A DNA stretch of 64,000 bases from an uncultured Clostridium sp. GTDB taxonomy: Bacteria > Bacillota > Clostridia > TANB77 > CAG-508. Under the pieces are notes generated by a model. That model had not been told where the DNA came from and did no database searches. It saw only the letters and a program-made list of their open reading frames with translations. Shown here in pieces: positions 10,383 to 11,174 of the stretch. The DNA lies in NCBI GenBank assembly GCA_947570695.1, contig CANOVB010000001.1:14553-78552 (forward strand), read 5' to 3'. Position 1 is the stretch's first letter, and each line of letters opens with the position of its first letter. The position numbers were made by a program, and so were the translations under genes.

Positions 10383-11174
10383 ATGATAGAAAAAGTTAAT
10401 CCAAAACATCCTGATAAAGTAGCAGATAGAATTGCAGGAGCAATAGTAGATTTAGCATATACAAAAGAAGAAAATCCTAAAATTGCAGTAGAAGTCTTAA
10501 TAGGACACGGACATTGTATGATTGTAACAGAAACAAATGTAAAAGTATCTTTTGAAGAGGTTGAAAATGCTGTACACAGAATAGCAGGTAAAAATATAGA
10601 TGTTCATATACTACCAAACAAACAAGATGAGTATTTAGCAAATAACCAAAATGAAAAAATAAGGTGTGGAGATAATGGAATATTTAAAGGTGTACCATTG
10701 ACTGAAGAAGATAGACAAATAAGTTATTTAGCACATCAAATATATGATAAATACAATAGTGATGGTAAATATATATTAGACCAAAAAACAAATAAATGTA
10801 TAATTTGTCAAAGTAATGCAAAAACTGAAGAACTAAAAGAATTATATCCAACAGCAACAATAAATCCATTAGGAGAATGGACTGGTGGGATAAATGTAGA
10901 TACAGGAGCAACTAATAGAAAATTAGGATCTGATATGGGAAATGCAGTAACAGGTGGAGGATTACACGGAAAAGACTTATCAAAAGCAGATGTATCAGTA
11001 AATATATATGCACATATAAAAGCACAAGAATTACAAAAGCCAATAGAATTATTTTGTGCAATAGGTGATGAAGAAATAGATGGAAAGCCTTATGAAGAAA
11101 TAGTAAAAATAGCAAAAGATTATATAAATAATTTAGGTGGATTTGAAAAATTAGCAGAATGGGGCTTATTTTAA
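10383..11174 (+). CDS. metK-like: Short S-adenosylmethionine synthetase (MetK)-like protein, phage-encoded (263 aa)
   Basis: HPDKVADRIAGAIVD matches MetK GHPDKIADQISDAVLD. GDNGIF matches GDQGLMFGYA. TGGGLHGKDLSKADVS matches GGGAFSGKDPSKVDRSAAY. Confidence 0.6.
   Translation: MIEKVNPKHPDKVADRIAGAIVDLAYTKEENPKIAVEVLIGHGHCMIVTETNVKVSFEEVENAVHRIAGKNIDVHILPNKQDEYLANNQNEKIRCGDNGIFKGVPLTEEDRQISYLAHQIYDKYNSDGKYILDQKTNKCIICQSNAKTEELKELYPTATINPLGEWTGGINVDTGATNRKLGSDMGNAVTGGGLHGKDLSKADVSVNIYAHIKAQELQKPIELFCAIGDEEIDGKPYEEIVKIAKDYINNLGGFEKLAEWGLF

Follow-up and report, generated by a model that had tools for sequence, protein, structure and literature searches.

A prophage at the start of the 64,000-nucleotide (nt) stretch of uncultured Clostridium sp. 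DNA analyzed here (contig CANOVB010000001.1; this whole stretch is hereafter the window) carries, at positions 10383-11174, a gene for a 263-amino-acid (aa) homologue of MetK, the S-adenosylmethionine (SAM) synthetase or methionine adenosyltransferase (MAT). We refer to this protein and its short relatives as mini-MetK. The explanation that we favor, with moderate confidence, is that mini-MetK is an active SAM synthetase of compact size, free of riboswitch control, and makes SAM for the methylation of phage DNA. This explanation is based on homology, fold, retention of catalytic residues, purifying selection and a recurrent linkage to DNA methyltransferase genes, which we take up in turn below.

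The compact MetK homologue and its predicted active site

A first-pass annotation, made from the letters of the window alone, had described the 263-aa open reading frame (ORF) as a truncated or minimal MetK with several MetK signature blocks. The three blocks it quoted are present (HPDKVADRIAGAIVD, residues 9-23; GDNGIF, residues 96-101; and TGGGLHGKDLSKADVS, residues 190-205), and the similarity found with Pfam, phmmer and hhalign is far beyond chance. The Pfam profile S-AdoMet_synt_N (PF00438) matches mini-MetK at 1.8e-11, with 44.9 bits against a gathering threshold of 33.1. A phmmer search against all PDB sequences returned MetK/MAT chains exclusively (best 2.5e-11), the matched stretches being the N-terminal HPDK block and the DxGxTxRK...GGGxxGKDxxKxD block, and hhalign aligned a 36-member family profile with E. 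coli MetK (our reference sequence is identical to PDB 7ll3_A) with a probability of 98.4%. In PHROGs, phrog_1569 ("unknown function") spans residues 1-263 at 1.8e-68. The predicted structure has no significant match in the BFVD viral structure library, and no near-identical DNA was found in the phage collection.

The description as truncated holds for length but not for domain content. Compared with E. coli MetK, mini-MetK is 121 aa shorter (263 vs 384 aa; the first-pass figure was about 120), but no domain has been lost, because the family profile pairs residues 1-263 with E. coli residues 1-343. The predicted fold is confident and compact and contains the three tandem beta-alpha-beta-beta-alpha-beta domains with their pseudo-threefold symmetry; judging from this model, mini-MetK keeps all three MAT domains, each of them trimmed, and corresponds to the MAT core minus peripheral elements. 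In all, 252 of the 263 residues map to the conserved core. Missing relative to E. coli MetK are the loop after helix 2, the regions at approximately 126-137 and 152-162, the tip of the middle-domain beta-hairpin, part of helix 4 together with the subsequent loop, and the last 41 residues. For comparison, the MAT chains among the PDB search matches listed all have at least 343 residues. The model also appears to keep the flat face of beta-sheet through which MATs dimerize.

For the active site, we take the catalytic and ligand-binding roles of the E. coli residues to be those given in the MAT literature. In the phmmer, hhalign and MAFFT alignments, H9, D11 and K12 of mini-MetK correspond to E. 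coli His14, Asp16 and Lys17; E37, E50, Q81 and D97 to Glu42, Glu55, Gln98 and Asp118; D173, R179, K180 and D184 to Asp238, Arg244, Lys245 and Asp249; and K197, D198, K201 and D203 to Lys265, Asp266, Lys269 and Asp271, while W166 replaces the adenine-stacking Phe230. The first-pass annotation had reasoned that a lack of equivalents to HPDK, GDQG and GGGAFSGKD would speak against a MetK assignment, and on alignment HPDK, GDxG and GGGxxGKD counterparts are all present. A near-invariant D127-G128-K129 opens the first strand of the middle-domain hairpin in the model, and its strand topology and conservation fit the assignment of D127 and K129 as the equivalents of Asp163 and Lys165; the sequence aligners put this DGK on the E. 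coli "DDGK" at the hairpin tip instead, a placement that we set aside on those same two grounds. As judged by alignment, residues from both sides of the canonical MAT interface are retained, which provides indirect support for a dimer.

The phrog_1569 family and its linkage to DNA methyltransferases

By full-length profile match, length and C-terminal motif, the window protein is assigned to the phrog_1569 family. The motif, GGFEKxAEWGL (residues 252-262 in the window protein), is conserved family-wide and is family-specific. The family comprises at least 8000 clusters at 90% identity, with all candidates scored significant; an exhaustive search of the 50%-identity representatives gave 204 clusters at E<=1e-30, and at least 534 loci in the one-genome-per-species GTDB data encode a relative, mostly in Clostridia, Bacilli and Erysipelotrichaceae and also in Prevotella/Segatella, Alistipes, Treponema and others. 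Among the 120 relatives listed, identity to the window protein is 73-98% and nearly all are 261-265 aa long; members from Firmicutes, Prevotella, Treponema and a Gardnerella phage are 65-70% identical. The catalytic positions are kept in 35-43 of the 43 full-length 50%-identity cluster representatives, and mini-MetK is under purifying selection, the ratio of nonsynonymous to synonymous substitution rates (dN/dS) being 0.18-0.41 between the window gene and its relatives.

The first-pass annotation had called minimal phage MetKs rarely annotated. This is true of their labels, as 23 of the 25 GenBank phage records that carry the family say "hypothetical protein", one is an unannotated record, and Gardnerella phage vB_Gva_AB1 is the sole record labeled "S-adenosylmethionine synthetase"; the family itself is neither rare, with thousands of members, nor unnoticed (PMC8223999, PMC4260502). 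Among the long cluster representatives scanned, none joins mini-MetK to a methyltransferase domain; one of them, P0185, combines domains of a Clp protease and of a capsid protein and seems to be either a chimera or an artefact of gene calling. We also noted a copy 98% identical to the window gene (locus L076, 6001-6789) in which TAA, in frame, takes the place of CAA, the codon of the conserved Gln143; this could reflect a pseudogene, a misassembly or, with lower probability, recoding.

The first-pass suggestion that the protein, a predicted enzyme, could supply SAM to the nearby methyltransferase is backed by recurrent synteny. We called and clustered ORFs in 151 loci (72 from IMG/VR, 80 from GTDB, the Gardnerella phage and the window), which share ancestry, so that the counts are not counts of independent events. 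In 109 of the 151 loci, mini-MetK has a member of the ParB-methyltransferase cluster no more than four genes away on either side, and in 93 it is directly adjacent (75 immediately downstream, 18 immediately upstream). In agreement with this, a separate tblastn count found a methyltransferase homologue near mini-MetK in 62 of the 72 viral loci. Across the 151 loci, linkage to DNA methyltransferases far exceeds linkage to any other gene family.

In the dominant gene order, the SNF2 helicase is followed by a regulator-like ORF of 142 aa (a sigma-70 subunit according to the Gardnerella phage annotation), HNH, small terminase subunit, mini-MetK, ParB-methyltransferase and C5-cytosine methyltransferase. 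There are several other orders in which the methyltransferase stays adjacent to mini-MetK and all remaining neighbors differ, and the variety of these orders argues for selection on the linkage between the two genes. In the streptococcal phage Javan105, adenine and cytosine methyltransferase genes come directly after mini-MetK. Strong as it is, the linkage does not extend to every locus. Next to mini-MetK in two of the loci without a ParB-methyltransferase (L007 from IMG/VR and L095 from GTDB) is an ORF of 434 aa in which a CxxxCxxC motif of the radical-SAM type was recognized by eye, and this radical-SAM-like ORF is a potential SAM-consuming neighbor of a different kind.

The prophage around mini-MetK

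The prophage spans window position 1 to approximately 34 kb, with the host genes plsX, addB, topB and ftsA beyond. In the genome scan, the 100% match is locus L074, in a metagenome-assembled genome (MAG) of Erysipelotrichaceae. The features closest to mini-MetK are as follows.

9877-10380 (+): 167-aa ORF with a hydrophobic N-terminal segment and a weakly ParB-N-like C-terminus
10368-10373 (+): Shine-Dalgarno box AGGAGG, 9 nt 5′ of the mini-MetK ATG, read from the sequence
10383-11174 (+): compact MetK/MAT homologue (phrog_1569), 263 aa, intact ATG-started ORF
11392-11826 (+): transcription-regulator-like ORF (phrog_36 transcriptional regulator, 3.5e-12) with weak similarity to sigma-70 region 4 (Sigma70_r4)
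11941-11975 (+): terminator-like hairpin plus T run
11978-12055 (+): tRNA-like gene with an 8-nt anticodon loop (ARAGORN; Rfam tRNA, 47.8 bits)
12152-13342 (+): fusion of ParB_N with a beta-class N6A/N4C DNA methyltransferase (Pfam PF02195, 6.9e-07, and PF01555, 2.9e-30; phrog_498, 3.1e-175)
13362-14021 (+): small terminase subunit (phrog_1889, 3.6e-35)
13996-15438 (+): 480-aa ORF in the position of a large terminase subunit (assigned by position, with a weak tblastn match in locus L054)

On the 5′ side, mini-MetK is preceded by a primase and a DUF927 helicase, an SNF2-like helicase, RecU, an AAA_5/DUF7192 pair and two small ORFs, and it is the last sizeable gene of this replication/middle-gene block. 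Its ribosome-binding site is strong. The stop codon of the 167-aa ORF (10378-10380) leaves 2 nt before the mini-MetK ATG, a tight packing that points to a single operon. That ORF has no Pfam, PHROG or NCBIfam match, and its C-terminus resembles the ParB part of the window methyltransferase with a BLASTP E-value of 0.006.

On the 3′ side come a 54-aa ORF, the regulator-like ORF, the hairpin, the tRNA-like gene and the ParB-methyltransferase, then the small terminase subunit, the ORF in the large-terminase position (which has no Pfam match) and head genes that include a minor capsid protein. We read the ORF at 11392-11826, from its similarities, as an ArpU-type late regulator; its size and position suggest that it is the counterpart of the family's 142-aa ORF (position -3), and a search for its counterpart in the relatives gave no match at E<=1e-5. 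The hairpin parts the mini-MetK transcription unit from the methyltransferase/terminase unit, and since the terminase genes lie directly 3′ of it, the methyltransferase heads the packaging operon. Both parts of the fusion described in the first-pass annotation have a Pfam match, its DPPY and FGGSGS motifs are intact in the translation, and the designation "orphan" is apt, as there is no adjoining restriction gene. At Rfam gathering thresholds there is no SAM riboswitch in the window, tRNA being the sole Rfam family found.

The tRNA-like gene, which sits between the hairpin and the methyltransferase gene, has the anticodon loop GCACAAGA, in which the usual U33 is missing; because this loop has 8 nt, ARAGORN assigns no amino acid. 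The gene is kept in the three close relatives L074-L076, with the loop variants GCACGAGA (L074) and ACACATGG (L076), and the anticodon stem of L076 shows a compensatory change from CAAC/GUUG to CAGC/GCUG, an argument that the tRNA-like structure is maintained. It is possibly a processing signal, or else an unusual decoding or non-decoding tRNA.

Elsewhere in the prophage, the gene pair at 7711-9631 (+) encodes a CobS/MoxR-like AAA_5 ATPase (phrog_249, 'porphyrin biosynthesis') and the DUF7192 protein. There is also a diversity-generating retroelement, with a variable repeat at 29823-29916, a template repeat at 30591-30684 and a reverse transcriptase at 30780-31964. The 3′ end of ORF 28675-29928 contains a 94-nt repeat that shares 82% identity with a copy a short way 5′ of the reverse-transcriptase gene, and at every mismatch the upstream (template) copy has adenine. 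Judged from its position alone, ORF 28675-29928 is probably a tail or receptor-binding protein. At the right prophage end, positions 33652-34100 (+), within ORF 33101-34105, contain three tandem copies of approximately 134 nt that are 66-76% identical and spaced approximately 155 nt apart, and these may be cell-wall-binding repeats of a lysin.

Possible roles of mini-MetK and comparison with known systems

Known MATs have their active sites at the subunit interface of a dimer. Mini-MetK would likewise catalyze the MAT reaction (EC 2.5.1.6), in which ATP and L-methionine give SAM, PPi and Pi, and it would probably do so as a homodimer with active sites at its subunit interface. It would be transcribed with the prophage replication and middle genes during lytic development and, lacking the SAM riboswitch that represses metK in Firmicutes, its expression would escape such repression and could raise or hold up the SAM pool in lytic growth. 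The presumed main consumer in the window is the ParB-N6/N4 enzyme, joined in many relatives by a C5 methyltransferase, and the phage methyltransferase could then fully methylate the many new genome copies before packaging. That the protein is active, that it forms a dimer, that it is expressed in lytic development and that selection favors it for the SAM it supplies are what we infer from the observations above.

A bolder version, which we put forward only tentatively and think less probable than its failure, is that mini-MetK approximates a minimal functional MAT, a bare catalytic dimer core, and that it forms with the ParB-methyltransferase (and in relatives also the C5 enzyme) a self-sufficient, horizontally mobile 'methylation cassette'. 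Heavy methylation of phage genomes would then no longer depend on the SAM pool of the host, which riboswitches limit, and SAM might be passed straight to the methyltransferase. This version assumes that the parts trimmed from the MAT fold serve tetramerization or regulation. As a rough estimate, if the ParB-methyltransferase has low specificity, about 100 AT-rich 50-kb genomes per burst would need millions of methyl groups, or about 10-fold what the SAM pool of a typical cell holds; a demand of that size would explain why many phages carry the gene.

Several observations weigh against the favored explanation. The first-pass annotation had proposed to see which MetK domain profiles are retained, and beyond the N domain, which scores above gathering, neither S-AdoMet_synt_M nor S-AdoMet_synt_C matches at E<=0.01; likewise, the NCBIfam metK equivalog TIGR01034 scores 54.8 bits, below its cutoff of 309.4. 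The motifs GAGDQGxxxGY and G[GA]G[ASC]FSxK[DE], which we take to be the classic MAT signatures, both fit E. coli MetK in a regular-expression search but neither fits mini-MetK, whose equivalents are RCGDNGIFKGV and GGGLHGKD, the latter glycine-rich loop being 1 residue shorter than GGGAFSGKD. Four diverged members of the family (P0129, P0175, P0228 and P0245) lack HPDK or GDxG. No main-cluster methyltransferase is nearby in 42 of the 151 loci, some of which are truncated contigs; the Prevotella-type elements among these 42 border host genes such as guaA, and a motif screen for other methyltransferases in all 42 gave 4 candidates only. Even in the window, mini-MetK and the methyltransferase are not adjacent but 978 nt apart (the first-pass annotation had said about 1 kb), with two ORFs, the hairpin and the tRNA-like gene between them. 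In the literature, most subscription journals being outside our coverage, we found nothing on the activity, structure or an anti-defense role of the short form; what came up were annotation mentions in genome papers, the 12/111phiA genetic study and gene lists from viromes. Nothing directly relevant was found on ParB-domain or non-specific phage methyltransferases. Finally, the single genetic study reports lysogen phenotypes (aggregation, biofilm) and not phage ones (PMC8223999).

That study bears on the alternative that mini-MetK is an active enzyme but serves as an auxiliary or lysogenic-conversion gene, benefiting the host or lysogen through polyamines, autoinducer-2 (AI-2) or protein/RNA methylation. 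Renard et al. (2021) described in the S. agalactiae prophage 12/111phiA a MetK with "a 135-amino-acid truncation" relative to E. coli, the deletion and complementation of which altered the chain length, aggregation and glycocalyx of the lysogen (PMC8223999). They reported similar prophages in S. constellatus and S. equi (PMC8223999), and Javan phages from these hosts carry copies 62-67% identical to the window protein, from which we infer that the 12/111phiA protein belongs to the mini-MetK family. SAM synthetase is also among the abundant auxiliary genes in virome surveys (PMC13644194), and about a quarter of our loci are without a main-cluster methyltransferase neighbor. However, the 12/111phiA complementation was partial and confounded by secondary mutations (PMC8223999), the window gene is tightly packed within the lytic replication/middle block rather than in a moron-like position, and no other linkage approaches that to DNA methyltransferases; we therefore regard a role in lysogenic conversion as unlikely. 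Less likely again is a modulator of host SAM metabolism that binds host MetK in mixed dimers, or binds SAM, with an outcome analogous to that of the T3 SAMase. Heterodimers are conceivable given the dimer-interface face seemingly kept in the model, the T3 SAM lyase does bind MetK (PDB 8bb1; bioRxiv 10.1101/2023.02.27.530186), and the few members without catalytic residues still keep GGFEKxAEWGL. An inhibitor needs no full catalytic set, though, yet that set is conserved in about 80-100% of the cluster representatives; lower SAM would also starve the phage's own adjacent methyltransferases, and canonical, clearly enzymatic phage MetKs fill the same slot.

The deviating signature loops (GDNG for GDQG, and the shortened P-loop-like motif) could instead signal altered chemistry, in which a SAM analogue, another nucleotide or another thioether would lead to a non-methyl DNA modification by the ParB-methyltransferase, for which carboxy-SAM (Cx-SAM) offers a precedent (PMC12783734). 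We consider this very improbable, as the equivalents of the methionine-contacting Glu55, Gln98, Asp238 and Lys269 and an adenine-stacking aromatic residue are kept, the neighboring methyltransferases belong to the ordinary N6_N4 and C5 families and have the usual motifs, and related modules contain canonical MetK in place of the short form. A decaying, functionless remnant of a captured host metK might be suspected from the 121 missing residues and the premature stop in L076, but most listed members share the same length range and an identical architecture with the conserved C-terminal motif, and the dN/dS values, the confident compact fold and the strong ribosome-binding site point the same way; the conservation data effectively refute it.

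If the short form is indeed active, the MAT fold can be pared by about 30%, possibly to the smallest size at which a MAT still functions, and the protein would be of practical interest for SAM and SAM-analogue biocatalysis and for sorting regulatory from chemical MAT elements. If its proposed role is correct, a very abundant gene, labeled "hypothetical" in prophages of the gut, mouth and rumen, would join the cofactor-supply class, and the action of orphan phage methyltransferases would be SAM-limited, the mirror image of SAM destruction by T3. Thousands of database entries would have their annotation corrected.

Compared with bacterial MetK (E. coli, PDB 1FUG/7LL3; the thermostable MAT 5H9U; C. 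jejuni MAT 4LE5), mini-MetK is approximately 25% identical and is distinguished by its own C-terminal motif and the absence of a SAM riboswitch. Like the T3-type SAM lyase, it would be a phage protein acting on the host SAM pool, but the lyase destroys SAM, inhibits MetK and has an unrelated fold; a SAM hydrolase appeared in the BFVD search with the mini-MetK model as one insignificant match (E 0.87), and the two show no sequence or fold similarity. A conceptual parallel is the phage pair of CmoA and CmoX, in which CmoA makes the carboxy-SAM that its neighbor, the DNA carboxymethyltransferase CmoX, consumes (PMC12783734): in both cases a phage cofactor-making enzyme lies beside a DNA-modifying transferase that uses the cofactor. 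CmoA differs in belonging to an unrelated family and in consuming SAM, rather than making it, to yield its product.

Mini-MetK is not new as a kind, since both a truncated phage MetK and the SAM-supply idea have been published. The former is that of 12/111phiA, in a study confined to lysogen phenotypes, with an enzyme assay and a methyltransferase link outside its scope (PMC8223999); the latter goes back to Iannelli et al. (2014), who suggested that orf29 of Phi1207.3 (353 aa, three MAT domains) is the methyl-donor source for a nearby methylase (PMC4260502). With E. coli MetK as the query, tblastn found 139 phage records, 123 of them covering at least 80% of the query, and these phage MetKs are mostly from streptococcal prophages, approximately 345 aa long and annotated as SAM synthetase. 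One of them, from phi-SsuNJ2, shares 51% identity with E. coli MetK but only approximately 25% with the window protein, and it is encoded in a module of primase, helicase, MetK, endonuclease, adenine methyltransferase and terminase. More generally, the phage MetKs of this length (Phi1207.3 orf29, phi-SsuNJ2 and many Javan phages) share with mini-MetK a module that runs from helicase through MetK, HNH and ParB/adenine methyltransferase (plus C5) to terminase. They are ordinary, correctly annotated enzymes, whereas the short form is mostly called 'hypothetical', and the fact that it takes the place of canonical MetK in an equivalent slot supports a shared function.

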